Below are positions 753 to 62,566 of a DNA stretch of 64,000 bases, piece after piece (position 1 is the first letter of the stretch; every line of letters starts with the position of its first letter). Position numbers and translations under genes: made by a program. This DNA is from Patescibacteria group bacterium (GTDB lineage Bacteria; Patescibacteriota; Patescibacteriia; UBA10025; JAHIVO01), in assembly GCA_028718605.1 (NCBI GenBank), contig JAQULM010000001.1, positions 94,693-158,692 on the forward strand, given 5' to 3'. The notes under the pieces were generated by a model. The model was not told the origin of the DNA, did no database searches, and worked only from the letters and a program-made list of their open reading frames with translations.

Positions 753-2383
753 TTTGATGATTCCTTTTTTACGCCATTGCTGAATAATTGCTGCCGTGCC
801 TTCCGGACCCACTCAGTTATGATGGTAATTTCGTCGCATTTAAAAACGATAGCTAATAGTAAATACGCTGCAATGCCGATGCAACCGGCGCCGGTGCCCT
901 GAATGAGCACGCCCATAAACGTCTGCATGTTAACGCCGAGATTAATGACATACCGTGCCGCAAACGTAACAGCGCCCGCCATCGCGGAAATCGTGATTAT
1001 TTTCAGTACCGAAAGGATCATGGTGCGGTCATCTAAATATCCAATTCGCTTTCGCAGTACGACGAGCAATAGTATCATCTGGAAAAAACTGGCAATACTG
1101 AATGCGAGCCCAAGGCCAAGCACTCCATAGGGACGAGAGAGAATGATCGCACCAGCACTGTTGATGACGAGTGAAACGATCGCAATTACAACGGGTGTTC
1201 TCGTATCCTGCCATGCATAGAATGAGCGCGCGAGGAGCGGTATCGTACTTTGTGCGAATAATGAAAGTGCGAAAAGACCAAGCGTCTGCGCGGTCAGTTT
1301 TGTATCTTCCCAATCAAAAGCGCCTGCCCCGAGAACCACACGGACGATTTCCGCCCTGAGGACAAGTATCAGCACTGAAAATGGAATTATAACAAATAGT
1401 ATTCGCCTGAAACTGATGGAAAAATGCTGCACAAAAAGCCGGTGGTTTTTTTGGGCAAAAGCCTCACTAAAAAACGGGAATGACGCAACGGCGATTGAAA
1501 CACCAAAAACATTAATCGGAAAGCTCTGGAGATTGTTCGCGAAGGTAAAAACGGCGACCGAGCCGGCGGCCAGTAACGATCCGATGATGACGCTGATGAG
1601 CTGGTCAACCTGCGCAACAGCAAGGCCAAACGTCCGCGGTAACATTAGTTTTCCAATCGTACGAACACCCCGGTCGTGCCAATCAAAAACGGGCCGGTAT
1701 CGGTATCCAATCCGGTGAACTCCCGGAATCTGGACAATAAAATGCAAGAATGAACCGAGCACGACGCCATATGCAAGTCCATACAGTCCATAGCGCGGGA
1801 CGAGCAGTACGATGCCGAGAATAATCCCGATATTATACATGACTGGCGCAAGTGCGAAACTGACGTATCGTTTCAACGAATTGAGCATGCCGGTCATGAC
1901 ATTGCTCGCGCCAAAAAAGACGATCGATACTAACATAATACGTGTCATGTTCACTGTCATGCCTTGCTTCTCCGTGTCGAATCCGGGGGCAATCAGCGGT
2001 ACGATCTGTGGGGCGAATATGAAAAACAAAATGCCAAAGACGACCAGCCCAACAAGTAAAATATTGAGGAGTGAATTCGCGAGGTGCCAGACTTCAGCGT
2101 GGTCCCCCGAATTTTCTTTTGCACGCTGGAGGTACTCGACAAAAACGGGAATAAACGCAGCTGAGAGCGCTCCAAGAACTAGGACATTGAATACGAGATC
2201 GGGTATGCGAAATGCCGCATAGTACGTGTCGAGCTCATCCCCTGCGCCAAATTTGCCTGCAAGCAAACGATCACGAACCAAACCAAGCACTCTGCTCAAT
2301 ACAGATGCGGTCGCTATTATAATCGCACCACCTGTTAAGGTGGTGGTTAATTTTCGCCAAATTTTTAACAACATCGTGCTCAA
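737..2383 (-). CDS. murJ: Lipid II flippase MurJ (MviN family)
   Basis: A 548-aa polytopic membrane protein with the MurJ-typical N-terminus ([54 protein letters not shown]). It apparently uses a TTG start. Confidence 0.85.
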
Positions 2384-2465
2384 ATTATACCGATTTGTAC
2401 ATTATTTCGCAAGTATTTGGTTATTCGATAAAAATGACTACGGTGTCGTAAAACATATTTATATA

Positions 2466-2581
2466 ATAAAAAAGAGCTGCTGGCTACATACTGAAAGCGT
2501 TTATAAATACTAAGCAGTGAGGAGAGAGTTTACCACCCAGTATGTTGTACTTTCTGTACGCGTAGACCAGCAGCTCTTTTT
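2466..2581. terminator. Long inverted-repeat hairpin (AAAAAAGAGCTGCTGG ... CCAGCAGCTCTTTTTT). It is terminator-like in both directions and is also a small-RNA candidate.
   Basis: A perfect 15-16 bp terminal stem is flanked by A6 on one side and T6 on the other, closing a loop of about 85 nt. The loop contains a nested inverted repeat (acatactg/cagtatgt) and the motif GAGGAGAGAG. It lies downstream of the stop of the minus gene 2766..3239. Confidence 0.4.
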
Positions 2582-2765
2582 TGCCAATGTTGTCTCATTG
2601 GCAACCAACAAGTATATGCTTTTTGATTAATTTGTCAAGGTCAGCCCTCGAACGCAGAAAACATTTTTCTGAACTCGAGGGATGGAGGGAAAAGCACGGT
2701 CGTACGTTCGTCAGATGACGAGCATTCGACTATTGTACTTTTCCCTCGCATGAGCCTTGGCGTTA

Positions 2766-3239
2766 TTAGCCCGAGATGCGGATAACCCAGAACGTTCCTT
2801 TCCAAAGCAAGATGGTCGCGCTAATTGCGAGTCCGTAAAAAACAATCGCAAATGGCGGGCAAATCTTCCAGATTCTGGGAACGAAATGAAATCCCCAGTT
2901 GAGGACGAGCGTGCACATGATCAGGTAGAGCCACCCGAACACGGCAAGCAAGAAAGTTCGGAGTACAAAATTATACACGAGGAAATCCAGAAATGAATCC
3001 GCACCCCGATACCGTGCATACCACTCGCTAAACAACTGTACGTTCTGCACCGGCAGAAACGTATAGTGATAGAGAATGAATACCACGGCGAAGAAGTAGC
3101 CGACAAATGTATCGTTCCGGCTGCCCCACCACCTCAGTCCTGCCTTGTTAAACGACAGGAGGCCGAAAATCAAGCTCAAGACAACGAAGTTAATCCCATT
3201 AGCTAGATATGGCCAATACCCAGGAATCGTGGTTTCCAT
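2766..3239 (-). CDS. Hypothetical polytopic membrane protein
   Basis: A 157-aa ORF with four or five hydrophobic segments and a good SD (aggagaataaatt ATG). Confidence 0.6.
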   Translation of the reverse strand: METTIPGYWPYLANGINFVVLSLIFGLLSFNKAGLRWWGSRNDTFVGYFFAVVFILYHYTFLPVQNVQLFSEWYARYRGADSFLDFLVYNFVLRTFLLAVFGWLYLIMCTLVLNWGFHFVPRIWKICPPFAIVFYGLAISATILLWKGTFWVIRISG

Positions 3240-3518
3240 AATTTATTCTCCTAACGGCTAAATGTTTACCAACCACGCAACTGGGGGCTAGAAGGCCCGA
3301 ATAGGCCTCGCAGAAGCGGGCATCAGGCCGTGGCGCGAACAATGATGCTCTCTCAGTGCAGGACCAAAAGATATCATCGTATATGCGCCAGTCACTAACC
3401 CTCCATTTGTGTGGTTGGTAAAACGCCGAAAGCTCATGTGTTCTCAAGGAACAGATGCGGATATGAATGCTGTTCGCACCCACGTCTGTTTCTTTGAACG
3501 GCGGCCTTTAAAAGAAAA

Positions 3519-3560
3519 GGAAGTAGGAGAGGCAAGTGGATTGAACACTTGCTCCCCTAC
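3519..3560 (-). terminator. Rho-independent terminator candidate for gene 3577..4209
   Basis: The minus strand shows an imperfect stem of about 14 bp, gtaggggagcaagtg/cacttgcctctcctac, followed by a T-rich tract (ttccttttctttt). Confidence 0.45.
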
Positions 3561-3576
3561 TGAAGTAGTTGAATAC

Positions 3577-4209
3577 CTAGCGATATGAGATTGAATCCGT
3601 ATCGAGGAAGAAGAAGTCCTTCCCGGACAGATAGTCGTGGCATGTCGGCGATGCTAGAGCGGGCAAAGAGTCCACGGGACTTATCTTGCCATACTCAGGC
3701 GGTATGAATTCGATGATTACGGCCGCATTTGCCGGAACGTCGATCGGACCGATGCTGTAGAGTTTGACCCTATCCCCATACACGGAAAAGTACTGCTTGT
3801 GGCCATTGATCCGAATTACCGGTTCAAGGCAATCCGGCTTGGCACCAAGTGTCTTCCGGTCGAACAGAACGATGTAGCGTCCTTCTGGGTTGTGGAGATA
3901 TACTGTGTCTGCAAACACTTGCCATGGAAGAATCCAGGGGTTCTCTTCGCGGTATACCAGATTGTTAACCGGTATGTAGGTCGTGTCGTGCTCAGTGATG
4001 ACTACCAACGTCGTATCGTAGTGCCACCTGTCGATCAACGTAGTGTCATGCACTTGAATCGAGTCGATAACGTAGATATATATCGGATATGGTATCGAGT
4101 CGATATATGTGTCCGGCGCCGTCGGGAGATTCCGAGGTGGGTTATCGCAGCCGATGCTCAGTACCAATACAATGAGCGTCAGTATCAACATCACAATTAA
4201 GTTCTTCAT
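3577..4209 (-). CDS. Hypothetical lipoprotein
   Basis: A signal peptide with lipobox-like LSIGC at the N-terminus. No recognisable catalytic motifs. Confidence 0.6.
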   Translation of the reverse strand: MKNLIVMLILTLIVLVLSIGCDNPPRNLPTAPDTYIDSIPYPIYIYVIDSIQVHDTTLIDRWHYDTTLVVITEHDTTYIPVNNLVYREENPWILPWQVFADTVYLHNPEGRYIVLFDRKTLGAKPDCLEPVIRINGHKQYFSVYGDRVKLYSIGPIDVPANAAVIIEFIPPEYGKISPVDSLPALASPTCHDYLSGKDFFFLDTDSISYR

Positions 4210-4220
4210 TGCTACTCCTC

Positions 4221-5222
4221 CTAAAACACTTGTACATTGAGCGCGAATCGTACGCTCCAGTTCGAGACCAGCTCACGCCGGTCCCATATCATGTTCTTGC
4301 CATAGCCGACAAGAACTGATCCCTCAAGCCACGGCCGCGTTGTCAACGTAGGCCCGAATTCGATGCACCGGCGTCTGACGAGCATCTGGCTGTAATCGTC
4401 ATTCATGTTGAATTGGCTCAGTGCCACCGTAACGCCAAAGTTCTTCAGCGTATCATTGGGCTCAGGGTCGAGCATGAGCAACCAGATGGTTGCGCCAACT
4501 GACTGAAAGTCAACATGGCCATTTATATACTGGCCTCGTTCGTCCTTAAAGTCCTGGTTGGTCAGAATCCCAGCTCCGTACGTCGCAAACATCGATAGGT
4601 CCTTATCGAACCTTATGTTGCAGCCGACTGACGGAGTCAGGTTGGCAACGTCACGGTTGATGATGACATTGAGGCCGAGGCGGATCGAACGCGCAAGCTT
4701 TGTTAGGGCTGACACACGATCCGTCGTATCGGTCACGTATACGTATGTGGAGCAGATCTCAATCTGGGGTGGAATCGCCGCAAGGCTATCCTTGAGCTTT
4801 TGCAGGTCTGCCATAGTGGCATTCCTGCTCACCACTGTCGCAATCGCGATACGTGACGAGTCGCCGCGTGTCCTGACTTCTCCGGTTTCCTCATGGATTC
4901 GTGTTGAATCAACACCGAACCCGTGAATTAGACGGTTTCTGACGCTATGTCCGCGGGATAATGCTGTGCCCGCATTCTTCGCATCATGCTGGGCATCATA
5001 CCGAATCGCGTCGGCCTGGCCGTACACGACGACCATAACATCGGGATCCGCTTTGAGCGTGTCAGCGATCCGTTGCAGACTACGGTCGAACTGGACCCAG
5101 AATGACTCATTGACCGACATTCCTTTTGCGATCGGGAAGTCGGTAATGATGACAGTCTGTGATTGGACTGCCGTTGCACACGCAAGGCACACAATCACGG
5201 TTAACAAAGACTTCAGGTTCAT
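4221..5222 (-). CDS. Secreted protein with an N-terminal OmpA/MotB-like peptidoglycan-binding domain and a C-terminal beta-barrel-like region ending in Phe
   Basis: There is a signal peptide. The OmpA-C-like segment is VVVYGQADAIRYDAQHDAKNAGTALSRGHSVRNRLIHGFGVDSTRIHEETGEV. The C-terminal half has alternating hydrophobic residues and ends ...FALNVQVF. Confidence 0.6.
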   Translation of the reverse strand: MNLKSLLTVIVCLACATAVQSQTVIITDFPIAKGMSVNESFWVQFDRSLQRIADTLKADPDVMVVVYGQADAIRYDAQHDAKNAGTALSRGHSVRNRLIHGFGVDSTRIHEETGEVRTRGDSSRIAIATVVSRNATMADLQKLKDSLAAIPPQIEICSTYVYVTDTTDRVSALTKLARSIRLGLNVIINRDVANLTPSVGCNIRFDKDLSMFATYGAGILTNQDFKDERGQYINGHVDFQSVGATIWLLMLDPEPNDTLKNFGVTVALSQFNMNDDYSQMLVRRRCIEFGPTLTTRPWLEGSVLVGYGKNMIWDRRELVSNWSVRFALNVQVF

Positions 5223-5768
5223 TCAATTACTCCTTTCACCTGAAAAACAGTTATACAGTGTATTTGACAACTTCAATTGGTTACTAGGTATTCAGCTTTC
5301 AAAGAGCGTCCCCCATTTCAGCAGACATACGCACATGGCTTATATCCGCTGGGATGGGGAGGGGTATGACAGAACACGTTGCATGTTCTATGCGCCATAC
5401 CCCCTGTGACGGAATTATGGAAGGGGCAATATTGGAGGCGAATGTGCGACATTGTCCGCAATGCGAACCATCGCACGTGGCGCCGATAGCGGAAGTGAAA
5501 TCGCAGTGCAGGACCGCGCTTTACTCCCAGGCCGGGCCTCGAGCCGCTCGAGTTCAACGAGCTGGCCGCTCTCTCCTCCAAAATTTCCCCTTTCACCTTC
5601 TTATTAAAGCGTATTATTAAAAAAAGTGACAAATTTTGTACGTCCTACAAGGAGAGCATACAGAACTTGCCACTTTTACATAAACATTCACCCAGAGTAT
5701 ATAGAATAACTCCAGGGTCTCTCTCCTCGTCTATTCGCTTTTCAAAGGTACTTCCAGCGTGACTCAAC

Positions 5769-5797
5769 AGTATATCCGATAGTGTTTCCCCTGTCAA
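5769..5797 (-). promoter_or_regulatory. Sigma70-type promoter: TTGACA, 17-nt spacer, TATACT. It lies inside conserved element E1.
   Basis: The minus strand reads TTGACAggggaaacactatcggaTATACT. The same architecture recurs at 7226..7254. Confidence 0.5.
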
Positions 5798-5947
5798 GGG
5801 CAAACATGTGGATAACGGACTTCCAAATATTAACTAACTTTAGCATTATTATAAGCCCTTTCTCCATAAAACATCAGTTGCCATGAATATTTTCAAGAGA
5901 AAGGGCTGGTGGGTGTCGTGTGCTCGGCGACACCCACCAATGCCTGA

Positions 5948-6325
5948 CTATCCCTGCCGTGACTCAGACTGGTACTGAATCGCGTCGAAAGGAATCCGTA
6001 GAACGTACACCCGTTCGAGTTTGCGCTCGAACAAGGAAAATTTCACACGCACGACTTCATCAATGCGCGCACGTGCAACTGTGACCGGGTAATATTCGAT
6101 GTTCACGATATCATCCTGCGTGAACGTTGTATCGTTTCGCTTGAATGAAAATGCGACATGTTCGACATACCCATTCACGATTGAATCGTGCTGGACATCG
6201 ACCATGTAAACCCGGTCAATGGTCACGTCATAGGTGGCCACTGTCATTTCGGACTTCATCGGAAGTGCGATACTTACGACAACAACCCCCACTAACGTCA
6301 GCACCACAGTCCATGCGTACTTCAT
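5948..6325 (-). CDS. Hypothetical small secreted protein
   Basis: An internal start, MKYAWTVVLTLVGVVVVSIALP, gives a signal peptide and is preceded by GGAGTG. The longer ORF in the track, extending to 6421, lacks an RBS. Confidence 0.5.
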   Translation of the reverse strand: MKYAWTVVLTLVGVVVVSIALPMKSEMTVATYDVTIDRVYMVDVQHDSIVNGYVEHVAFSFKRNDTTFTQDDIVNIEYYPVTVARARIDEVVRVKFSLFERKLERVYVLRIPFDAIQYQSESRQG

Positions 6326-6496
6326 TGTACACTCCTTGCTGCATCCATACAGCTGTTTATGTTTATGCCTATCAAAGATCGAATTATTAGTCCTCCTTCC
6401 CAACAAACGATGTTCTATCAATCGTTTGCTCAGAAAGTAGGGGCGGGTTCTCGGAGAAAGGAAACGAGAACCCGCCGACGCAAGCTTCCATCAGCG

Positions 6497-6715
6497 TTAC
6501 TGCACATCCACGAAGTCGAACTGAACCGGCTTCGCGAACATGCAGGGCGTTATCGGAGCTTGCCATGAATTGTGTGACAGCATATAGGCAGCTTTGAACT
6601 GGCGTTGTGCCAATATCGTACTGCCTTGCTTGGCCGCGAGAAATGTAACAGTCGGCAGCCCAATACTTATAACCGTCACCACAATGAGCCAGAACTTTCC
6701 TGCTGAATCAGACAT
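6497..6715 (-). CDS. Small hypothetical membrane protein (72 aa)
   Basis: One TM segment (FWLIVVTVISIGLPTVTFLAA). Weak support. Confidence 0.3.
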   Translation of the reverse strand: MSDSAGKFWLIVVTVISIGLPTVTFLAAKQGSTILAQRQFKAAYMLSHNSWQAPITPCMFAKPVQFDFVDVQ

Positions 6716-6753
6716 TACGCCTCCCCTTTAATGTTGGCATATGGTACGTCTCG

Positions 6754-6978
6754 TTATTGCACATCCGTGATCGGGACCTGGTTTAGTTCAGCAATCATAC
6801 AATTGCTACTAACGTCCCACGAGTGATGGACGACTTTACCGTCAATGATGATGACGCTTCTGTCATACATTTCCGGATGTACGTTTGCAAAAAATGCTTC
6901 CAGCGCATTACTCCCCCCAAGATATACCCCGGTGAAAATGACGAATGACATTGCCAACATAAACAAGAATCTGGTCAT
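6754..6978 (-). CDS. Small hypothetical secreted protein (about 74 aa)
   Basis: The internal start MTRFLFMLAMSFVIFTGVY gives a signal-peptide-like N-terminus with a purine-rich stretch upstream. Confidence 0.4.
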   Translation of the reverse strand: MTRFLFMLAMSFVIFTGVYLGGSNALEAFFANVHPEMYDRSVIIIDGKVVHHSWDVSSNCMIAELNQVPITDVQ

Positions 6979-7225
6979 ACTTTCCCCCACTTCTTTATAA
7001 AAGATTGCACTTTTTGTTTGCCTTTTTTCTGGAGCATAAAACATATATACTAGTTATATGCTCAAGAAAACGCGCGGACTAACTAAGTATTTACTGCCAC
7101 CAAAAAACGAGCAGTCCGTGCAAGGAGAGCCCGTTTCTTGGGATTATATATAGTTAAAAAAATACCCTTCTTTTTTGCTCTCTCCTCGTTGAAAATACAG
7201 TTGTGAAATAACGATGTAACCACAC

Positions 7226-7254
7226 ACTATATACCATAATGTTTCCAGTGTCAA
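7226..7254 (-). promoter_or_regulatory. Sigma70-type promoter: TTGACA, 17-nt spacer, TATAGT. It lies inside conserved element E2.
   Basis: The minus strand reads TTGACActggaaacattatggtaTATAGT. It is paralogous to the promoter in E1. Confidence 0.5.
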
Positions 7255-7283
7255 GGGGTGGTATCCACAGATCGATAATCAGC

Positions 7284-7310
7284 CCAAAAAAACGCCCTTT
7301 TCTGGGCGTT
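7284..7310 (-). terminator. Rho-independent terminator of gene 7330..9705
   Basis: The minus strand reads aacgccc-agaaaa-gggcgtt followed by ttttttt. Confidence 0.55.
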
Positions 7311-7329
7311 CGCAATGAAATGCCTATGA

Positions 7330-9705
7330 TTATTTTTTCAGCATACAGCCGTAGAATGCGTCAGTTCCAAGGTCCGCACTTAACGAAATGGTGCGTTCAT
7401 TTTTAGTCTCCGCATGATCCGGCTTCCAGACAAATTCGAGATCGGTATCAACCGTTACCAGGCTCGTCAGCGCTGCCGGATTCGCGCCTGGCTGTTTCTG
7501 GACGTAGAGGCTGTAGTAATCTGTCGGATCGAACATGCCCCCAATGTCAAGTTTAAACGGCAGCTGGTACTCGAATGTAATCCGCTGCACTTCTCCCGGA
7601 TCAAGGCTGACCCAATTGCCAAATACCGTTTTACCTGTTTCCTCCGTAATACGTGTGCCTGTTTTTTCATCAATAATTGAAGATAACTCCTCGGCAGCTA
7701 AATCTTCATCTGAAACAGCGTCAGTATCTGGCAACAGGTACCGAAATGGCAATACCTCGTCAAAGCCAGAAGAGTTGAGGAGCGTACTCCCCTGCGGTAC
7801 ATACAAACGGAGGTACGAAACATTTGCAACTTTTTCCCACTGGTCAAGTCCGTTTCCTCGATGGGCGCGTGTTACTGTGACGGTGTCAGTTACCGATCCA
7901 TCTGCATGAATTTTTGCTTCATGTTTAATAAACTGGTCAATCACGTGGTCAGTCTTCCCCCCGCCAATATTCGTACTGACAAGGGCTATGTAATCACGCT
8001 CATTGGTGCGGATACCACCATCCGCGCCAACCTGCACTACATCTTCCTGGAGCTTGTCATCAAATAAATGTATTAGCAAATCACGCGATAAAATTGCATG
8101 CTGAAGCGTACCGACGATACTAAGCATTTCATCCTGGCTTGCGTTGAACAGCCGGTCAAGCAATTTCGGCATAAGGTCGCTGATAAACCGCTTCGGCTGA
8201 TTCTCCACGCGGTCATATGCTATTTCTGCCCAATATTGCGCTTGATAGACGACATTTGATTCATCGACGGTGACACCATACGCTTCCTGCATATCAATAG
8301 GCCCAACAGCAGACAGCAAACTCTCTAGTATCGCTGGCGTCAATGTAATAACACCGTCGACCGATGCTCCAGCCGTCCGTTCAAAAAACCAGCCAATTTT
8401 CTGCGCTGATGTCGGAAAATCAAAAAACCAGTTCGCATCTTGAAGATTCCAATGTGCGTTGACAAGCCACAGTGGCCTTGGCGCGATAATTTTTTCCTTC
8501 AATTGTCCGGCAACATCATACACTCCTCCGCCGGGCACTTCAAGATTCTCAATAGTGCCCTTATATATATCGACAAGCGCAATTGACCCTATAAAACCTC
8601 CCGTCGGGCGAAGTTCTCTGTTATTCTGAAATGCGAGTAAGAAACGCCTCGATGCATCATCTCCGAGAATGGTAAGCATAACATCAGCAACGGAAACCAT
8701 ATCATGGAATCCCGCTTGAAGCGTTGGAATAGTCTTTTGAATTGCTGCGACCTGATCCTGATATTCTCCAGGGATATCCTGCAGGCGAACCGCATCCATC
8801 GCTTCAACCGCGGCATCAACGTTCGCAATCACTCCGGGGAGCTCATTCTGTACTAACTTGATAAATCTGACAAGGGATGACCCCCCATCAACGTTTGTGG
8901 AATCATCAGGTGCATTGAGCCATGAAATAACTGTACTCAAGGTAGCACCGGCTTGGCTCAGTTGCTGGCCGGCAATGAGCAGCTGGTGCGCACTCTGTGC
9001 TTTATTCGGCACGAGCGAAGTTATATCAAGCAACAATCCTCCCGTCCGCTCAAGTTCTTCGCGTGCGGTTGAAAAACTTGCAGACGCCTTGTTGAACTCT
9101 TGGCCGGCAAGGTTAAATGACGACGATGAAGCAAACCCACCCGCACTCTGTAAATAATCGTATGCATCCGACGTACTGCCGAGTACCTTACCTTTCGCAT
9201 CGGAAGCCCGTTCAAAAATTCCAATCGTAATAAAAGGTATCGATAGTGCCGCACAGATGCCGGCAAATACCATGAGACGCTTGCGCCAGCCAAGCGGTAG
9301 CCGCGAATGCAGCCAATCAATGCGTTCCTGCGGAATTTCTTCGGTTTCAGGAATCATCTGCTCAGGCTTACGGATCGGGGTAGGCGCAACCCGCAGCTGA
9401 ACCTGTCGGCGATTTGGGGTTACGATTACCGTTTCCTGGGAACGGTGCTTCTCCGGCCGATGCCTGATTATTCGGACTATCCAGGATGTTATCGACCGCC
9501 GAAGTGTGAGAAAAAAAGCACGCAAACGGCTTGTCCGAGAAACTGTGGCCGTCTTTTCTGCATTCGTGTTATCGTACCGCACCTTTCGCAAATCAATTAA
9601 ATTTGCATGCGGAACATGGTACCGTGCGATCTGCGATCGATGGGCGCCATTCTGGCGAACTGCAGAATTTATGCTATTGTTTCGTGTTGCCATAACAAAT
9701 ATCAA
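7330..9705 (-). CDS. Large membrane-anchored, probably extracellular protein of unknown function (791 aa)
   Basis: A single TM near residue 150 (LMVFAGICAALSIPFITIGIF) followed by a long soluble region. It sits just upstream of the glycosyltransferase cluster. No family assignment could be supported. Confidence 0.65.
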   Translation of the reverse strand: MIFVMATRNNSINSAVRQNGAHRSQIARYHVPHANLIDLRKVRYDNTNAEKTATVSRTSRLRAFFLTLRRSITSWIVRIIRHRPEKHRSQETVIVTPNRRQVQLRVAPTPIRKPEQMIPETEEIPQERIDWLHSRLPLGWRKRLMVFAGICAALSIPFITIGIFERASDAKGKVLGSTSDAYDYLQSAGGFASSSSFNLAGQEFNKASASFSTAREELERTGGLLLDITSLVPNKAQSAHQLLIAGQQLSQAGATLSTVISWLNAPDDSTNVDGGSSLVRFIKLVQNELPGVIANVDAAVEAMDAVRLQDIPGEYQDQVAAIQKTIPTLQAGFHDMVSVADVMLTILGDDASRRFLLAFQNNRELRPTGGFIGSIALVDIYKGTIENLEVPGGGVYDVAGQLKEKIIAPRPLWLVNAHWNLQDANWFFDFPTSAQKIGWFFERTAGASVDGVITLTPAILESLLSAVGPIDMQEAYGVTVDESNVVYQAQYWAEIAYDRVENQPKRFISDLMPKLLDRLFNASQDEMLSIVGTLQHAILSRDLLIHLFDDKLQEDVVQVGADGGIRTNERDYIALVSTNIGGGKTDHVIDQFIKHEAKIHADGSVTDTVTVTRAHRGNGLDQWEKVANVSYLRLYVPQGSTLLNSSGFDEVLPFRYLLPDTDAVSDEDLAAEELSSIIDEKTGTRITEETGKTVFGNWVSLDPGEVQRITFEYQLPFKLDIGGMFDPTDYYSLYVQKQPGANPAALTSLVTVDTDLEFVWKPDHAETKNERTISLSADLGTDAFYGCMLKK

Positions 9706-15104: not shown

Positions 15105-15211
15105 TGATGTACACTGCGGATTGATGTCATTATATATAGAAAAGCGCCTAAGCAAACCTGTAAGCCGAATTCTGTCGACCTCCGCTCTCCGAGCTACGGT
15201 CGACAAGTCCC

Positions 15212-15600
15212 ATGGGGAGCCTGTCCGCCGGAGTTCGGAGAACGAAGGCGGATGATTATCTATCTAGCCCCGACGTTGCCGTCGGAGTCATGCGACCAAC
15301 CCACCCCGCCAGATGACGGGGCCTACTTGGTCTTGCACCGGATAGGGTTTTTCACGCTCTGGCGTCGCCACCAGAACCTGTGAGCTCTTACCTCACCTCT
15401 TTTCACCCTTGCCTGATCCCCGAAACAAGTTCGGAGCCATCGGCGGTTTTGTCTCTGTGACACTGTCCCTGAAAGACAACACTCAAAAGACTATAGCCCT
15501 TTTGATCGCTGCTCCCGGTCGCATTTCGCGACTATCCTTTTCCTTGCCTTTTATGGGCGAGGGGTGTTCGGACTTTCCTCTTTTTTGCAAGCTTTTTTGC
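15212..15600 (-). ncRNA. rnpB: RNase P RNA, bacterial type A
   Basis: The minus strand contains GAGGAAAGUCCGAACAC (P4 5' strand), ACAGAGACAAAACCGCCGAUGGCUC, AUCAGGCAAGGGUGAAAAGAGGUGAGGUAAGAGCUCAC, GGUGCAAGACCAAGUAGG and GGGCUAGAUAGAUAAUCAUCCGCC...GAACUCCGGCGGACAGG. These align segment by segment with E. coli M1 RNA. The ends are approximate. Confidence 0.85.
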
Positions 15601-15717
15601 CTGTAAAAAAGCAATCACCCGGTTTACTTAGGCAGAATATATCTTAGCCAAAAAGCCGTTTTTTGTCAATAAACTGTGGTATACTTGATATTGTAATTAC
15701 CATTAATAAACGCAGCT

Positions 15718-27396: not shown

Positions 27397-27499
27397 GCCG
27401 CTGTAGTTCAGCTGGTAGAGCAGTGGACTGTGTCCCTACGGGACATCTCACGCAGGGAGAAAAATCCAAAGGACAGGGGTTCGATTCCCTCCAGCGGCA
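27397..27499 (+). tRNA. tRNA-Phe(GAA)-like gene with a 30-nt insertion (about 27431..27460) in the anticodon loop
   Basis: It has a 7-bp acceptor GCCGCTG/CAGCGGC, D arm GTTC-AGCTGGTA-GAGC, T loop TTCGATT and discriminator A. Deleting the 30 nt gives the loop CUGAAAA, as in E. coli tRNA-Phe. The insertion lies between anticodon nt 34 and 35. Confidence 0.6.
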
Positions 27500-39273: not shown

Positions 39274-39531
39274 TTACTTTTTGCCTCGTATTGAAACAAC
39301 TGAAATCGAATTGGACGCTGTTTTTTTGATAATCAACCGCGCCTTCGCAGCGACGGTATTTTTCCTTACTAAATTGAAATTGAATTTCAAATTTTGCGGG
39401 GTTATCGCTTGTCCATGCTGGACAAGAGTGCCCAGGCGCACCGTAACGCTCGTGATTTGCTTCAAATCGCGCAGTGCGGCCGTATGGACAGCTGTTTTCA
39501 GTATATCCTGCGCTGCAATTAAATCATGCAT
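39274..39531 (-). pseudogene. hypA: HypA-like fragment A: the Ni-binding N-terminal domain only, with no Zn-finger
   Basis: MHDLIAAQDILKTAVHTAALRDLKQITSVTVRLGTLVQHGQAITPQNLKFNFNLVRKNTVAAKARL... parallels E. coli HypA (MHEITLCQRALELIEQQAAKHGAKRVTGVWLKIGAFSCVETSSLAFCFDLVCRGSVAE). It then ends after 22 more residues with no CxxC...CxxC motifs. Confidence 0.55.
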
Positions 39532-39763
39532 ACCATCTCTCCTGCGGCTTGCCGCGTTCAATACGTATTCTGCGGTTCCAATGAAATACGCCTTCCCCTT
39601 ACAACTCTTCGTCTGATTTATCAGCTCTTTTCTCCGGTTCCGTATCGCCTGCTGCATGCTCGTCGGTATCGTTCGTATCTAATGGCTCACCACGCTCACT
39701 GTCTGGCTCATGGAATGGTGATAATCGTTCAGGCATACAATACAAAAGTTTATGTCCTCATCG

Positions 39764-40171
39764 CTAGTGCGTCGCACACGTCATGCACGGATCGTACGCA
39801 CGGATGAGGGTACCGAGTTTACGCGCATCGGGAGCATGTCGCCGGGCAGCACGTAAGTAGTGCTCCAAGTCAACCTCGAGATTGTTAATCATTTGCGCGG
39901 TCGGGGTAATAATATTTACATTTTTTAAAATACCAAGCCGATCTGTTTCGTAGTAATGCAGTAAAATTCCGCGCGGCGTTTCTATCGCAGCGACGGTATT
40001 TTTCCTTACTAAATTGAAATTGAATTTCAAATTTTGCGGGGTTATCGCTTGTCCATGCTGGACAAGAGTGCCCAGGCGCACCGTAACGCTCGTGATTTGC
40101 TTCAAATCGCGCAGTGCGGCTGTATTGACAGCCGTTTTCAGTATATCCTGCGCTGCAATTAAATCATGCAT
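39764..40171 (-). pseudogene. Chimeric ORF: HypA N-domain copy B fused in frame to a duplicated C-terminal 73 codons of the hydrogenase large subunit
   Basis: The first 62 aa are identical or near-identical to fragment A. The remainder, IETPRGILLHYYETDRLGIL...DPCMTCATH, matches the C-terminus of the ORF 40810..42066. Confidence 0.5.
39766..39993. repeat. Direct duplicate of the 3' end of the hydrogenase large-subunit gene (original at about 40813..41037)
   Basis: About 225 bp with only a few substitutions. It includes the DPCxxCxxH-encoding end. Confidence 0.8.
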
Positions 40172-40173
40172 AC
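39988..40173. repeat. Direct repeat, copy B of the hypA 5' segment (copy A lies at about 39350..39531, with few mismatches)
   Basis: A stretch of about 185 bp is nearly identical between the two loci when read directly. Confidence 0.8.
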
Positions 40174-40200
40174 GACTAAAAACTCGGCCAATGAATCAAA

Positions 40201-40785
40201 TTAGATATGTTCTTTTATTACTCCCTTCCCTGATTCAATGATATGTTCTTTCAAAAATGCTTCTACCACATCTACATTGTCTGGATTTGTGTACAAGGAC
40301 AAATAGGGGCTCATCTTTAAATTCGTATTAGCCCAACGCAAAAGAAACATTACGCCATGCCCTTTTATAACCGCCTTTGTTGCCATGCTATATATACCAG
40401 AACTGACACCAGTCATAACTGGTGTTACTCCATATGAAGCTTTTACTGGGGCGTTAAGCTTCGCCATTCTTTCATACGTCGTCAGATGGTCAAATTCCGA
40501 CCACACATGTTTTTCCTTCTTCTGCCCATACTGAATGCACACACCTTCATTATTTAATTCAATATCCATGCCTTGTCTGTATTTTCGAAATAAAGCTAAA
40601 TATAAAATTGTTGATAATAGCACGGCAATGGCAACCGTCACAACAACTCCAAACCAGCCCCATAGTTTTGGCCCCAGAATTATTAAAACTGTACCAATAA
40701 TCCAAGTGCATACTACTGCTACGATTGCAGGGCGCTGCCTTTCTTTAAAAACTTCCTTTGAAATTGAGTATTTTATTTCGGTCAT
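40201..40785 (-). CDS. Hypothetical membrane protein (194 aa) lying between the two duplicated segments
   Basis: Two N-terminal TM helices and then a soluble domain. No known motifs. Confidence 0.55.
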   Translation of the reverse strand: MTEIKYSISKEVFKERQRPAIVAVVCTWIIGTVLIILGPKLWGWFGVVVTVAIAVLLSTILYLALFRKYRQGMDIELNNEGVCIQYGQKKEKHVWSEFDHLTTYERMAKLNAPVKASYGVTPVMTGVSSGIYSMATKAVIKGHGVMFLLRWANTNLKMSPYLSLYTNPDNVDVVEAFLKEHIIESGKGVIKEHI

Positions 40786-40809
40786 AGTACTATCAGATTA
40801 TTTTATTTA

Positions 40810-42066
40810 CTAATGTGTTGCACACGTCATACACGGATCGTACGCACGGATGAGGGTACCGAGTTTACGCGCATCGGGAGCATGTCGCCGGGCAGCACGT
40901 AAGTAGTGCTCCAAGTCAACCTCGAGATTGTTAATCATTTGCGCGGTCGGGGTAATAATATTTACATTTTTTAAAATACCAAGCCGATCTGTTTCGTAGT
41001 AATGCAGTAAAATTCCGCGCGGCGCTTCTATCGCACCGACGCCCTTACCAGCACGAACGGTATACGCCGCCATCGGCTTTTGGTGTTTCATACGGAGATA
41101 CTGGGCGAGAAGTTTCTGAGTTTCTTCAACGCAGTGAATCAGCTCGACTCCCTGGCACCATACGTTATAGAACGGATTGTCGATCGGCATGCGGTGCCCG
41201 AGGTGCCGGAATGCCTGCCGCGCGATTGGATTCAGCTGGCGCCAGTTGTTGTTGACGCGCGAGAGCGCACCGACAAAATACGCTTCGCCTTTGTGTGTCG
41301 TCCGTTTAACATAATCATCGTCAGACTGGATTTCACGAACATGCCTCATGAATAACGATGGTTGCTGGCGTAATCCGTTTGTCGAAACAACTGCTGTTCC
41401 GTCATAGATCGAATATTCACGGGAAGACCGGAGGCTAATGTATTCAGTTTTCCGGTGGAAATCGGGGAATTTCAGATGTGAAATAAAATGAGCAAGCTCC
41501 ACTACCCCCATCATCACTTCCTGGCTGTCCGCAAGCAGCAATTCCAGCACGCGCCGGTTAGGGAGCTTTAAGAAACCGCCAACCTGTGAATTAACCGGAT
41601 GCAAGTTTCTGCCGCCGATGGCGTGTGATATGCGGTTTCCGTAATCACGGATTTTGAGCGCCAGCGCGCTCTGCTTCGGAGCAATGGCAAGCAAATCCAG
41701 CGCTGAATCCTTTCCGTAGAAATCTGGAATCGCCATGAAGTACGCGTGAACTGCGTGGCTCGTAATCGTCTGGGCGAGCATCATTAATTTGCGCAAAACA
41801 ACCGTACCCGGCGACACGCAGACGCGCATGGCGTTTTCCAGCGCTTTAATCGCTGTTAAATTGTGGACGATCGGGCACACGCCGCAAATCCGTGCCGTGA
41901 CGAGTGGCGCGTCCATGTAATTCCTGCCGATCAAGATGCCTTCGATAAGCCGCGCGCCCTCAAGCGTCAAATAACGCGCTTCGGGGATATTCCCCTTCTT
42001 GAGCGCTCCCCAGAACGTAGCGTGGCCCTCAATCCGCGTGACATGTTTGATAGTGACTGTCTTCAT
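40810..42066 (-). CDS. hydA: [NiFe]-hydrogenase large subunit, group 3 (sulfhydrogenase alpha-like)
   Basis: The N-terminal RIEGH...CGVC Ni-binding motif-1 region and the C-terminal DPCMTCATH. 418 aa. Confidence 0.9.
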   Translation of the reverse strand: MKTVTIKHVTRIEGHATFWGALKKGNIPEARYLTLEGARLIEGILIGRNYMDAPLVTARICGVCPIVHNLTAIKALENAMRVCVSPGTVVLRKLMMLAQTITSHAVHAYFMAIPDFYGKDSALDLLAIAPKQSALALKIRDYGNRISHAIGGRNLHPVNSQVGGFLKLPNRRVLELLLADSQEVMMGVVELAHFISHLKFPDFHRKTEYISLRSSREYSIYDGTAVVSTNGLRQQPSLFMRHVREIQSDDDYVKRTTHKGEAYFVGALSRVNNNWRQLNPIARQAFRHLGHRMPIDNPFYNVWCQGVELIHCVEETQKLLAQYLRMKHQKPMAAYTVRAGKGVGAIEAPRGILLHYYETDRLGILKNVNIITPTAQMINNLEVDLEHYLRAARRHAPDARKLGTLIRAYDPCMTCATH

Positions 42067-55397: not shown

Positions 55398-56144
55398 TTA
55401 TTTTTTTGAAAAAAAGTTATAAAACAGTGGATTCTTTCTTTTTAAAAAATCCTCCATCTCGGCTACCTTTAATAGATTTGGGCAGGTGTGGCCTTGATAT
55501 GAAGAATATTCTCCGATTCTATTAAATGGAAAGCTCAATTTCAATAGCATATTCAATAATCTATCATCCATAACACTATAAATCTGCGTAATACCTTTCG
55601 ATTTGACATAATGATACATCGCTCGGATAAGTAATAGCATCAAATGAAAACGACGGTAATCGGGTGATAAAATCAAACGTGATATTTCTGCAATATGGTT
55701 TCGATCGATTTTATCTTGACTGTTAATTTTAAAGTGATTTTCTATAGGAAATCCCTTATCAGAAATTAAAATTAGCCGCACATAACCAACAATTTCTTCG
55801 ACACCCCCTTTAAAGTTTCGTTTTAGAAGGACAAAATGTTCAGAGTAGGGATCGTATTCATCACTTTCTAGCTTATGTGGATAATTTGAGGCTTGAAGGT
55901 AATTATATTGCTCACAGTATACCTCATACCGTAAGCGATAAATACGATACATATCATCAAGATTTTGCGAATATCTAATATAAAAATTTCTTGAGGTCCA
56001 ATGATTAAAAATAATAAATTTAAAAAAATTATCAAGCTTTTTAAAAAAACGTTTAATAACTTTATTACTTATTTTAAAATTTCCAAGAAAAATATCCCAG
56101 AGACTTATATCTAGCTCCTGATCATTATCATTTGAATCAGCCAT
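55398..56144 (-). CDS. GNAT-fold N-acyltransferase of the LuxI / N-acyl-amino-acid-synthase type (exosortase-system-associated acyltransferase-like)
   Basis: MYRIYRLRYEVYCEQYNYL (compare R-x-x-V-F in LuxI/NasY) and ESDEYDPYSEHFVLL. Confidence 0.6.
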   Translation of the reverse strand: MADSNDNDQELDISLWDIFLGNFKISNKVIKRFFKKLDNFFKFIIFNHWTSRNFYIRYSQNLDDMYRIYRLRYEVYCEQYNYLQASNYPHKLESDEYDPYSEHFVLLKRNFKGGVEEIVGYVRLILISDKGFPIENHFKINSQDKIDRNHIAEISRLILSPDYRRFHLMLLLIRAMYHYVKSKGITQIYSVMDDRLLNMLLKLSFPFNRIGEYSSYQGHTCPNLLKVAEMEDFLKRKNPLFYNFFSKK

Positions 56145-59999: not shown

Positions 60000-60420
60000 G
60001 CTTGTCACTCTGACCTGCTGGACGTTTAGAGATCGCCGCGCTTCGCTCGCGATGACAGAAAAAGTATGTCTTTGCGACCGGAGCGAAGCAATCAAGTTCA
60101 GATTCCGGGTCAAGCCCGGAATGACCAGGGTTTATTATTTTGTCATCCTGAACTTGATTCGGCGTCGAGCCATCTCACCCTCTGTCACTCTGACCCGCCA
60201 TTGGGTGGGGAAGAGTCCCCTGGCCGGAGGCCAGGAGATGCTTTGCATGCAGTGGCGTCATGGGGTCTCTCGTTACACATGAAGGAGGCGGTGACCAACC
60301 CAGTTTGTCACCCTGAACGCAGTGAAGGGTCCCCTGGCCGATTGTCCAGAGATCGCCGCGCTTCGCTCGCGATGACAGAAAAAGTATGTCTTTGCGAGCG
60401 CAGCGAAGCAATCTCATGAG
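60000..60420. repeat. Hairpin-rich repeat block
   Basis: Two copies of a 66-bp palindromic unit (60028..60093 and 60348..60413). Several GTCA(C/T)CCTGAAC / TGTCACTCTGACC boxes. Perfect palindromes attccgggtcaagcccggaat and cctggccggaggccagg. Confidence 0.55.
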
Positions 60421-62169: not shown

Positions 62170-62566
62170 AATATTCTCCTTTCTTTGCGCCGTCGCAATA
62201 ATTAGCGCCGTCGCTTTTAACCTACCACTCCCCCTTTTCCCGTCAAGTTAGATATAAACAAACGCCTGTGGATAAGTTCATTTACCGTATAATGCATGGA
62301 GCGTACAATTACCGTAGTACATATAACATAGATATAGACTTCTTTCTCTTCAACGCCCATTGCGTGGGATTAACACACGCTCAAATCGCGCTTTTGTCTC
62401 ACGGATGAGCAAATCCACGCCACCTATCGTCCAAATTCGTGGCTGGTACCCAGGTGCGCCAGCACCAATCATTGCCCTCCCCAGGTTCACCCCGGACTTG
62501 TGGAGGGCGTATTTTACCAAACCAAAACACGCCGCCGTGCCTGTCGCAGGCAGTTTTTGAATTGTC

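Follow-up and report, generated by a model that had tools for sequence, protein, structure and literature searches.

Candidate Attenuator Leaders and a Complementary Structured RNA at a Hypervariable Envelope-Gene Island of a Patescibacteria Genome

Countertranscript-driven attenuation is known from the plasmids pT181, pIP501 and pAMbeta1. In these systems, a leader folds as either an antiterminator or a terminator, and a small RNA (sRNA) complementary to one strand of the antiterminator decides between the two. Could a similar arrangement operate in the Patescibacteria/CPR, a large and mostly uncultured share of the bacteria with tiny genomes and an epibiotic lifestyle? The literature that we searched contained no native non-coding or regulatory RNA for this group. 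A 2024 perspective on the Patescibacteria mentions riboswitches solely as potential tools for engineering and gives no account of a native regulatory RNA (PMC11665869).

We analyzed a 64-kb stretch of DNA (the window) from a Patescibacteria MAG. In it, an island that encodes small membrane or secreted proteins and is hypervariable separates a cluster of polysaccharide genes from murJ, the gene for the lipid II flippase; an E-type unit and E0 bracket this island. Our preferred reading, which we hold with about even confidence, is that the Patescibacteria have a conserved promoter-leader-attenuator cassette, with the units E1 and E2 as two of its diverged members, and that its GA motif pairs with the terminator in cis or with E0 in trans. 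As in the plasmid systems, the GA motif would be the decisive antiterminator strand, and E0 is predicted to carry its perfect complement in an exposed loop (CUCUCUCCUC; computed E0:GA duplexes of about −19.8 kcal/mol). Unlike the plasmid countertranscripts, E0 lies kilobases away on the same strand and is not antisense RNA from the same locus, its complementarity is a 10–14-nt seed instead of a full antisense, and the arrangement is chromosomal and would control envelope genes.

Riboswitch and attenuator platforms combine a promoter, a non-coding leader, mutually exclusive helices, a U-tract terminator and downstream genes without their own promoter, a layout that is also predicted here. The E units differ from them in having no conserved ligand-binding aptamer, no leader peptide and no Rfam 15 match, as well as in their hypervariable leader middle and their long distance to the start codon. 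Processive antitermination leaders (rrn and lambda boxA-boxB, HK022 put, Bacillus EAR, the LoaP leader hairpin and JUMPStart/ops) share with them a short invariant element early in an envelope or polysaccharide transcript, followed by terminators. However, the copies in the window have no boxA-like half, no known cognate factor and no Rfam match, and a complementary partner RNA is not known from any of these systems. Compared with the boxA consensus GCUCUUUAACAA, the ACUCUUUGAGG of the canonical relatives matches 7/8 core positions (by eye), and E1 (AUAGACGAGG) and E2 (UUCAACGAGG) are without boxA. The seed-loop sRNAs RsaE/RoxS and FsrA use C/U-rich motifs that target purine-rich, Shine–Dalgarno-like sequences. 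E0 would resemble them as a structured, self-terminating sRNA exposing an invariant pyrimidine-rich stretch complementary to AGGAG-containing sites, but its sequence and fold are unrelated, and instead of ribosome-binding sites it would target the hairpin of a leader and, in a 5′UTR domain, the P1 helix.

Anatomy of E1 and E2

The two units consist of the following elements.

7269..7261, minus strand: E2 upstream box TGTGGATAC, DnaA-box-like, 8/9 positions matching TGTGGATAA, 6 nt upstream of CCCTTGACA
7254..7226, minus strand: E2 promoter, TTGACA-17-TATAGT, 11/12 consensus positions
7219..7100, minus strand: E2 leader RNA of ~120 nt, start predicted ~7 nt after the −10 element, end at the U-tract
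7189..7177, minus strand: E2 GA motif ACGAGGAGAGAGC
7142..7100, minus strand: E2 intrinsic terminator CCCAAGAAACGGGC..GCUCGUUUUUUGG, with the CU block GCUCUCCUUG (7130..7121) as apical 5′ side
7130..7114, minus strand: E2 CU-side motif GCTCTCCTTGCACGGAC
5815..5807, minus strand: E1 upstream box TTATCCACA, a perfect DnaA-box consensus (9/9), in the orientation opposite to the E2 box
5797..5769, minus strand: E1 promoter, TTGACA-17-TATACT, 11/12 consensus positions
5762..5619, minus strand: E1 leader RNA of ~144 nt, predicted
5730..5718, minus strand: E1 GA motif ACGAGGAGAGAGA
5677..5619, minus strand: E1 intrinsic terminator AAAAGUGGCAAG..UUUGUCACUUUUUUU, the apical part containing GCUCUCCUUG (5657..5648)
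5657..5642, minus strand: E1 CU-side motif GCTCTCCTTGTAGGAC

The initial annotation had described a shared minus-strand TTGACA-17-TATA(C/G)T promoter with an upstream box, a GA motif and a CU motif, and all of these were present where it had placed them. The promoter blocks of E1 and E2 are identical at 28/34 positions (82%; counted by hand), the spacer GGAAACA..GGTATA of the E2 promoter is common to relatives, and the full cassette has only two copies within the window. A shared TATATA box, also described, is present in both units but occurs in 6/22 family members vs. 2.2 expected, an enrichment too weak for a defining feature. The upstream box resembles a DnaA box just upstream of the −35 element, and relatives carry TGTGGATAT at the same position in either orientation (14/27 units); unlike the clusters of an origin, it is a single candidate box at a promoter. 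Within the window, TGTGGATA occurs six times vs. 1.6 expected, with no further CCCTTGACA site adjoining it. The palindrome GCTAATATTAGC, found upstream of many relatives' units, is absent at E2 and only approximate at E1.

At ~37 nt after the −10 element, both units carry ACGAGGAGAGAG. The GA core GAGGAGAGAG occurs four times in the 64 kb (2519 on the plus strand; 5569, 5719 and 7178 on the minus strand) vs. 0.05 expected; this count was reached in 0/100 shuffles, and all copies lie inside a 5-kb island. The exact GCTCTCCTTG is found in the window only at the E1 and E2 sites. A coding explanation fails. The small ORFs over E1 (5645..5803) and E2 (7083..7223) read the shared motifs in different frames, so that the conservation of these motifs is not coding; furthermore, the E2 leader contains no conserved ORF, and the relatives have no conserved start codon after the GA motif. 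A Shine–Dalgarno/anti-Shine–Dalgarno reading was rejected as well: AGGAG is present, but neither in E1 and E2 nor in the 5′UTR copy is it suitably spaced from a start codon. A PyrR site has no Rfam match and the wrong gene context, and the TRAP and CsrA site architectures do not fit.

The GA block had been suggested to pair back, and the computed folds agree: GA and CU form a 9-bp helix (CGAGGAGAG/CUCUCCUUG), with duplexes of −16 and −17 kcal/mol. This is the minimum-free-energy helix in leaders without the terminator 3′ arm, whereas the terminator wins at full length, where E1 and E2 reach only modest fold z-scores of −2.4 and −1.2, respectively. Both units have a predicted terminator within the 5′ leader downstream of the promoter, and the comparison of truncated with full-length folds gives an alternative helix that uses one terminator strand. 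Because the CU block is the apical 5′ arm of the terminator, GA:CU pairing would act as an antiterminator; because the hairpin competes with the intrinsic terminator, the unit would be an attenuator. Among E-associated terminators, 11/22 carry CUCUYC, compared with 6/490 others (Fisher p = 5e-13). The hairpin-forming leader of the initial annotation stands as to the predicted pairing, but that account had overlooked the terminators (E1 5677..5619, E2 7142..7100), and the long helix is extended only in this genome, where E1 and E2 have lost an arm of the local hairpin and gained UUG after CUCUCC, lengthening the cis helix from 6 to 9 bp.

What do these leaders precede? The genes 3′ of the E units encode almost exclusively small proteins with N-terminal hydrophobic or signal segments, in line with the secreted proteins of the initial annotation. 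The genes upstream of the units end in their own terminators, and the island carries several internal terminators and few promoters. A consensus scan from each E terminator to the start codon that follows (7100..6978 and 5619..5222, minus strand), which weak or non-sigma-70 promoters would escape, found no promoter. With no predicted promoter of their own, the downstream genes would be expressed only via terminator read-through. The gap from terminator to start codon is 125 nt for E2 and about 390–400 nt for E1, which is long for a simple attenuator. Behind E1, it is filled by a long 5′UTR.

5581..5431, minus strand: structured 5′UTR domain of ~150 nt, headed by a third GA copy, UUGGAGGAGAGAGCGG
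5430..5223, minus strand: rest of the long 5′UTR, upstream of the gene for a 333-aa secreted protein; partly conserved

The P1 helix of the domain (UUGGAGG.AGA/UUC.GCCUCCAA) encloses three internal hairpins, and 19/50 predicted pairs stay paired despite two-sided changes (5 sequences). In several lineages, the domain begins 20–45 nt past the terminator. The remainder (5430..5223) has no called gene and no predicted promoter. The initial annotation had listed the motif at 5572 as a complement; the motif is there, but on the transcribed strand it is a further GGAGGAGAGAG.

E0 and its CU motif

A third minus-strand unit, E0, with a predicted promoter to itself, lies 3–4.6 kb downstream of the E units and in the same orientation.

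2638..2611, minus strand: E0 promoter, TTGACA-16-TATACT, 11/12 match, conserved in relatives
2605..2468, minus strand: E0, a structured sRNA; a 5′ hairpin (UUGCCAAUG/CAUUGGCAA) comes first, and the motif is enclosed by a long closing stem (AAAAAGAGCUGCUGG/CCAGCAGCUCUUUUUU) with a U-tract after it
2531..2517, minus strand: E0 CU motif AAACUCUCUCCUCAC, exactly complementary to the GAGGAGAGAG core that E1, E2 and the 5′UTR domain share

The initial annotation had placed the GA motif in the loop of a hairpin at 2466..2581. It is there on the plus strand, but the element is transcribed from the minus strand, so that its RNA carries CUCUCUCCUC, a complementary CU loop and not a GA site. The same account missed the terminators, E0 as a third minus-strand unit and the ~150-nt 5′UTR domain at the 5569 copy.

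In the predicted fold of the relatives, the CU motif is unpaired between P3 and P4. The core of E0 is 83% paired vs. 38–50% in slid controls, with seven pairs changed on both sides, and its covariation score of 0.384 vs. 0.212 was reached by 0/500 shuffles. Both the closing stem and the 5′ hairpin covary. The counts of G.U vs. A.C cells (22:0 and 8:3) place the E0 RNA on the minus strand. These compensatory changes across species argue with moderate strength that E0 is a structured non-coding RNA, moderate because the sample is small (7–9 sequences). Could E0 be a 6S RNA, which forms an irregular hairpin of ~180 nt with a large central bubble? No Rfam 6S match was found at E ≤ 10 or E ≤ 5, and the fold differs, consisting of a 5′ hairpin and a branched domain closed by the terminator stem.

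The complementarity between E0 and GA comprises only the 10-nt core in this genome and 11–14 nt in relatives. Since the GA core is invariant, covariation cannot prove either the GA:CU or the GA:E0 pairing; co-variation between E0 and the GA flanks is likewise uninformative, the GA 18-mer being invariant in relatives and the window sharing only the 10-nt core.

The cassette family in relatives

Further copies exist in other genomes. An E-type unit stands directly after the DUF4012 gene in 7/7 syntenic relatives (DUF4012 43–51% identical), E0 precedes MurJ in 9 genomes, and at least 22 further distinct units with promoter, GA motif and CU-rich terminator were found in metagenomes, counting all loci. 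The order recurs elsewhere: other contigs have a GA unit followed, 0.8–8.5 kb downstream on the same strand, by a CU unit. Canonical units carry the hairpin ACUCUUU-GAGG-AGAGAGU (18 nt, a local 7-bp hairpin), invariant by construction, as these members were retrieved with the exact 18-mer. In the minimum-free-energy fold of canonical members, the GA motif sits in this local hairpin instead of pairing with the CU block, and the cis helix has only 6 bp; the antiterminator role is thus clear only for the copies in the window. The middle of the leader is hypervariable across the family. The relative L009 has ortholog types of both E1 and E2, with stems ACGAGC/GCUCGU vs. GUGGCA/UGCCAC, which indicates that the duplication is ancient; the E1 terminator has its orthologs in L053 and in unit b of L009, where the stem is GUGGCA/UGCCAC. 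The family of cis-regulatory leaders that had been proposed thus holds as a set of conserved promoter-plus-leader units; the regulation itself, including the occurrence of GA pairing and its direction, is what we infer.

On the window, only RNase P and tRNAs reached the gathering threshold of Rfam 15. E-value scans of the window (2300..7500), L009 (10300..15600) and L008 (10300..14300) gave weak matches far below gathering, mostly to microRNA precursors, and no antitermination, riboswitch or 6S family; on the E units, there were just two marginal sub-threshold matches. A genome-collection scan with CGAGGAGAGAGN{40,70}GCTCTCCTTG returned only four chance matches in high-GC sequence (61–69%) of unrelated phyla with no promoter or terminator context, so that the GTDB representatives do not contain the cassette in the form that it has in the window. 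A viral origin was rejected: the 18-mer has three unrelated viral matches, two of them in high-GC sequence with the motif as a Shine–Dalgarno site, and the 15-mer CU pattern gives chance matches only, none with E0 features.

Attenuation, its rivals and its meaning

We propose the following mechanism. A strong sigma-70-type promoter with a DnaA-box-like element would start a short non-coding leader, with the GA motif GAGGAGAGAG ~30 nt into it and, ~50–60 nt further, a terminator containing the CU block CUCUCC(UUG). Genes behind the cassettes, having no predicted promoter of their own, would be expressed only by read-through, in the case of E1 after a long structured 5′UTR. If the GA motif pairs with the CU block before the 3′ arm of the terminator is made, the resulting antiterminator would allow read-through. 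E0, transcribed separately at the far end of the island, would present CUCUCUCCUC single-stranded and bind the GA motif, either in trans or, within long read-through transcripts, in cis; this would withdraw GA from the antiterminator and favor termination, much as the plasmid countertranscripts do. Canonical members may instead mask the GA motif with their local hairpin. It may also be, given E0's own promoter and its constant place before murJ, that the roles are reversed, with E0 as the murJ leader and the E RNAs as its regulators. Going further and more tentatively, the elements may form a dedicated RNA–RNA circuit, with GA leaders both at the start of the island and inside it and a CU-loop sRNA before murJ, in which pairing sets island read-through through either sRNA-driven attenuation or the reset of processive antitermination.

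Alternatively, E1 and E2 could be independent, self-terminating sRNA genes (~120 and 144 nt) whose products work in trans. They might serve E0 as sponges or partners or control murJ read-through via its CU loop, and the downstream genes would be transcribed by other means. We consider this rather unlikely. Each unit is indeed a promoter plus a terminator with no ORF, separated from the next start codon by a long gap (125 and ~400 nt) and variable in its middle, as many sRNAs are; the 5′ end and the pre-terminator segment of the relatives can close into a compact fold, and E0 is strictly linked to murJ in 9 genomes. On the other hand, the downstream genes have no predicted promoter, transcription of the genes upstream ends at their own terminators, and the conserved 5′UTR domain 20–45 nt past the terminator in several lineages points to read-through transcripts; moreover, this reading is compatible with an attenuator, as a terminated leader can also act in trans. 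An invariant 18-nt hairpin in diverse units, as expected of a specific binding site, upstream of an intrinsic terminator in a polysaccharide/envelope locus, would also suit a protein or RNA-polymerase recruitment site (ACUCUUUGAGGAGAGAGU) for processive antitermination past the island terminators, in the manner of lambda nut/boxA-boxB, HK022 put, EAR or the LoaP hairpin, with the CU element at the island end stripping or neutralizing that site to stop transcription before murJ. The several internal terminators and few promoters of the island fit this model, as do the GA-upstream/CU-downstream order that recurs on one strand of unrelated contigs and the likeness of ACUCUUUGA to the rrn boxA GCUCUUUAA. 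However, E1 and E2 have no 5′ arm, and hence neither the hairpin nor the boxA-like part, yet they keep the GA core; no candidate factor was identified, no antitermination RNA in Rfam matches, and the strong promoter of E0 would be superfluous, all of which makes this model improbable.

Readings at the DNA level fare worse still. The GA and CU motifs do form a 10–14-bp inverted repeat around the hypervariable island, AACTCT-N6-AGAGTT is a DNA palindrome in canonical copies, and the upstream TGTGGATA box occurs in either orientation, as DNA sites do, so that GAGGAGAGAG and its inverted E0 copy might be recombination sites or terminal inverted repeats of an invertible or mobile cassette, or a repressor operator; inversion junctions would look like CTCTTTGAGGAGAGAGATTT. 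However, the island has the same orientation in 9 genomes, and no island protein of the window matches a recombinase family (Pfam). Within each class, the motif keeps one strand relative to transcription; the sequences on either side of the CU motif covary as helices of an RNA would, G.U pairs being frequent; and the palindrome is missing from E0 and from the window's E1 and E2, which leaves this reading with very little probability. Finally, E1 and E2 could hardly be a plain local duplication of a promoter region with functionless shared motifs. The 82% identity of the promoter blocks and the mere two full copies in the 64-kb window would suit it, but the GA core, the CU-type terminator and the position are kept where DUF4012 is only 43–51% identical, and the separate E1 and E2 ortholog types in L009 imply an ancient split; the comparative data contradict it.

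The locus thus yields three RNA elements that are conserved and, it appears, undescribed: the proposed GA leader/attenuator, E0 with its CU loop and the ~150-nt 5′UTR domain. The E units and E0 would be new RNA families with a mechanism of an already known type, in a phylum with no native regulatory RNA described in the literature found. The motifs are short and invariant, which makes the hypothesis directly testable. If the circuit is true, it would be the first native riboregulatory system described for Patescibacteria, tied to variable surface proteins that probably mediate host attachment. If the pairing is real, the genetic tools under development for Patescibacteria could draw on it for ready-made promoters, terminators and switches from nature, and it would show how minimal cells switch a variable surface repertoire.

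E1 and E2 leaders and their terminators

The boxes, promoters and motifs of two look-alike intergenic units, E1 and E2, were located on the minus strand, where the initial annotation had described them correctly.

Features of E1, E2, the third unit E0 and the 5′UTR domain
7269..7261, minus, E2 upstream box TGTGGATAC
7254..7226, minus, E2 predicted promoter, TTGACA-17-TATAGT
7189..7177, minus, E2 purine-rich GA motif ACGAGGAGAGAGC
7142..7100, minus, E2 predicted intrinsic terminator CCCAAGAAACGGGC...GCUCGUUUUUUGG
7130..7114, minus, E2 pyrimidine-rich CU-side motif GCTCTCCTTGCACGGAC
6978, first start codon past the E2 terminator (74-aa protein)
5815..5807, minus, E1 upstream box TTATCCACA
5797..5769, minus, E1 predicted promoter, TTGACA-17-TATACT
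5730..5718, minus, E1 GA motif ACGAGGAGAGAGA
5677..5619, minus, E1 predicted intrinsic terminator AAAAGUGGCAAG...UUUGUCACUUUUUUU
5657..5642, minus, E1 CU-side motif GCTCTCCTTGTAGGAC
5581..5431, minus, structured 5′UTR domain, aligned with L009 (15182-15337), L030 and two copies in L047
5222, first start codon past the E1 terminator (333-aa protein)
2638..2611, minus, E0 predicted promoter, TTGACA-16-TATACT

GAGGAGAGAG occurs four times in the 64 kb (0.05 expected), all within 2519..7187. A coding basis for the E1/E2 conservation was rejected, because the shared motifs fall in different reading frames of the small ORFs that cross the elements. The GA:CU pairing of the hairpin-forming leader suggested earlier was borne out in predicted folds, but the intrinsic terminator ending each unit had been overlooked. 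The CU block is the apical 5′ part of this terminator hairpin. The terminator forms in full-length folds of the leaders, and when its 3′ arm is left out, the MFE structure is the GA:CU helix CGAGGAGAG/CUCUCCUUG (9 bp, −16 and −17 kcal/mol). As modeled, the leaders have the layout of a terminator/antiterminator attenuator. The genes preceding E1 and E2 each end in their own predicted terminator, and the stretches from the E1/E2 terminators to the following start codons have no predicted promoter.

The box upstream of the −35 matches the DnaA-box consensus at 9/9 positions in E1 and 8/9 in E2; the box TGTGGATAT is present, in either orientation, in 14 of 27 units, and TGTGGATA occurs six times in the window (1.6 expected). 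Two more perfect DnaA-box 9-mers (TTATCCACA, minus strand) lie at 55876..55884 and 62267..62275, the latter adjoining a TATAAT. Furthermore, a palindrome-like (G)CTAATATTAGCC, a probable transcription-factor site, recurs 20–60 nt upstream of the −35 in relatives' E units of several subtypes (e.g., L011, L022, L028, L030, L053); the window's only counterpart is an approximate one (CTAAAGTTAG, ~5845), upstream of E1. Together, the box and the palindrome-like element suggest an additional putative DNA-binding regulator.

E0 and the 5′UTR domain

The hairpin noted earlier at 2466..2581 is real but belongs to a separate unit, E0; since E0 lies on the minus strand, its RNA carries CUCUCUCCUC, the complement of the GA motif, and not the motif itself. 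After its promoter, E0 comprises a 5′ hairpin, a long closing stem and a U-tract. In a small alignment of nine sequences, compensatory changes occur in the 5′ hairpin and in the closing stem/terminator, and the core motif AAAUCUCUCUCCUCA is unpaired between helix P3 (RUAGAAA/UUUCUAY) and hairpin P4. In P3 and P4, 83% of the cells pair, compared with 38–50% with slid partners, and both sides have changed at seven pairs; the covariation score (0.384 vs. 0.212) was reached by none of 500 shuffles. E0 is a structured RNA, and its ratios of G.U to A.C cells (22:0 and 8:3) assign it to the gene strand. Its CU motif is complementary over 10 nt (about −19.8 kcal/mol) to the E1, E2 and 5′UTR copies in the window; this complementarity extends to 11–12 nt in most relatives and to 14 nt in L008.

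A complement of the motif had likewise been reported at ~5572; the relation holds, but the transcribed strand of the copy at 5569 reads UUGGAGGAGAGAGCGG, a GA copy. Its start is ~40 nt past the E1 terminator, at the head of a structured domain closed by P1 (UUGGAGG.AGA/UUC.GCCUCCAA), so this third GA copy is the 5′ strand of P1. The ~150-nt fold has three internal hairpins, and pairing is kept through two-sided changes in 19 of 50 predicted pairs (five sequences). A partly conserved non-coding leader of ~390 nt (including 5223..5430) separates E1 from its gene. The domain may represent a novel cis-regulatory or riboswitch-like element preceding genes for secreted proteins.

An Rfam 15 scan of the window gave no match to E1, E2, E0 or the 5′UTR domain, and canonical family copies had none in Rfam; the GA leader, E0 and the 5′UTR domain are three families without an Rfam 15 match. 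Elsewhere in the window, a class A RNase P RNA (15145..15630, minus, 200 bits) has 486 nt against a 367-position model, implying sizeable insertions. Beside tRNA-Met and tRNA-His, Rfam places a third tRNA (27397..27499, plus, 103 nt, 48 bits) that ARAGORN does not report, possibly a tRNA interrupted by an insertion or intron. Two direct repeat pairs at 39345..41041 (189 and 232 nt, 97–98% identical) carry a second copy of the C-terminal end of a [NiFe]-hydrogenase large-subunit-like gene (..RAYDPCMTCATH) and of the beginning of a small gene beside it, through either a real partial duplication or an assembly artefact. A 66-nt direct repeat (60028..60093 and 60348..60413) is 97% identical, 320 nt apart.

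Relatives and the wider family

The window's 787-aa DUF4012 protein is identical to one from a Patescibacteria MAG, with ~43–51% identity to those of the next relatives. Relatives keep the order sugar transferase, glycosyltransferases, DUF4012, a variable island (small unannotated genes separated by large spacers), MurJ and LepA. In 7/7 syntenic genomes, an E-type unit directly follows DUF4012 and includes the TGTGGATAT box, a promoter (CCCTTGACA, 17-nt spacer, GGTATAtgAT), the motif (A)ACTCTTTGAGGAGAGAGT 45–75 nt beyond it and a U-tract terminator whose 5′ side carries CUCUCC or CUCUUC. E0 precedes MurJ in these seven genomes and on two further contigs (L022, L047); a more distant, non-syntenic genome (L082) has neither unit at the locus. 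L009 has an additional E1-type unit, followed by UUGGAGGAGAGAGCGG and a secreted-protein gene, and its GUGGCA/UGCCAC terminator stem, shared with the window E1, argues that E1 and E2 are ancient paralog types and not a recent duplication. A second kind of conserved post-terminator domain, GAAAAGGRGGGCUAGAAAA... and then long hairpins, was observed behind relatives' type-A units (L011 ~10740, L079/L034, L073, L080 ~12800, L081 ~12720, L035) and is absent 3′ of the window's E2.

A metagenome scan with an exact 18-mer, whose invariance among the retrieved members is by construction, returned 64 loci. A TTGAC-type promoter lies ≤110 nt upstream in 26 of them; the others are mostly coding-sequence matches. 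Over all loci, 22 distinct promoter–GA–terminator units of several subtypes, with unrelated flanks, could be extracted, which, with the syntenic genomes, upholds the earlier suggestion of a family. Of the E-associated terminators, 11/22 contain CUCUYC, compared with 6/490 other terminators at the same loci (Fisher p = 5e-13); the CU-rich terminator is specific to the E family. In canonical units, the GA motif is predicted to form a local hairpin, ACUCUUU-GAGG-AGAGAGU (7 bp, including one U.G pair). The window E1 and E2 are divergent: both have lost its 5′ arm and carry UUG after CUCUCC, as a result of which the cis GA:CU helix is 9 bp instead of the canonical 6 bp. Viral collections and, for the window-specific pattern, GTDB representative genomes yielded chance matches only, the latter in high-GC sequence. 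A GA unit upstream and a CU-motif unit 0.8–8.5 kb downstream on one strand recur on unrelated contigs.

Possible gating of the surface-protein island

The island covers 4–6 kb, with different small genes in each genome (the window, L008, L009, L011, L079, L080, L081) and unusually long non-coding spacers (up to 1.2 kb in L079). Two weak pairs excepted, its genes are non-homologous between genomes, and nearly all encode an N-terminal hydrophobic, transmembrane or signal segment, in keeping with the secreted-protein context first proposed. By sequence comparison, the DUF4012–MurJ island is a hypervariable surface-protein locus. Within 2374..2412 (minus), the murJ ATG at 2374 (545-aa gene call) lies ~10 nt past the TATAAT (2389..2384) of a predicted promoter, so murJ mRNA would be nearly leaderless.

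Could E1 and E2 gate the expression of the island genes? The anatomy, conservation, motif specificity, E0 structure and complementarity were demonstrated; we infer the transcription starts and ends, the occurrence of pairing and the sign of its effect. E1 and E2 would be promoter–leader–attenuator cassettes with the GA motif as the regulated pairing site: its pairing in cis with the CU block would prevent the terminator, and its withdrawal would let the terminator form. The better-matched, single-stranded CU loop of E0 could act in trans to withdraw the motif, a task that would fall to the local hairpin arm in canonical members.

The roles could also be reversed, with E0 as the murJ leader and the E RNAs as its regulators, or a processive antitermination factor could be recruited by the invariant hairpin and reset by the CU element at the island end. 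All nine genomes have the island in one orientation, the window's island proteins include no detected recombinase family, and the motif flanks covary as RNA, so a role at the DNA level, as inversion sites or an operator, is unlikely. The nearest known mechanism to the proposed E1/E2–E0 circuit is the countertranscript-driven attenuation of plasmids pT181 and pIP501, although the regulator here, E0, is a trans-encoded RNA from the same strand.

We found no published account of native regulatory RNAs in Patescibacteria. Both attenuating leaders and seed-loop sRNAs belong to known kinds of element; the unusual features here are the recurring bracket of GA unit, variable surface genes and CU unit, and a single 10-nt motif that is reused in three structural contexts.
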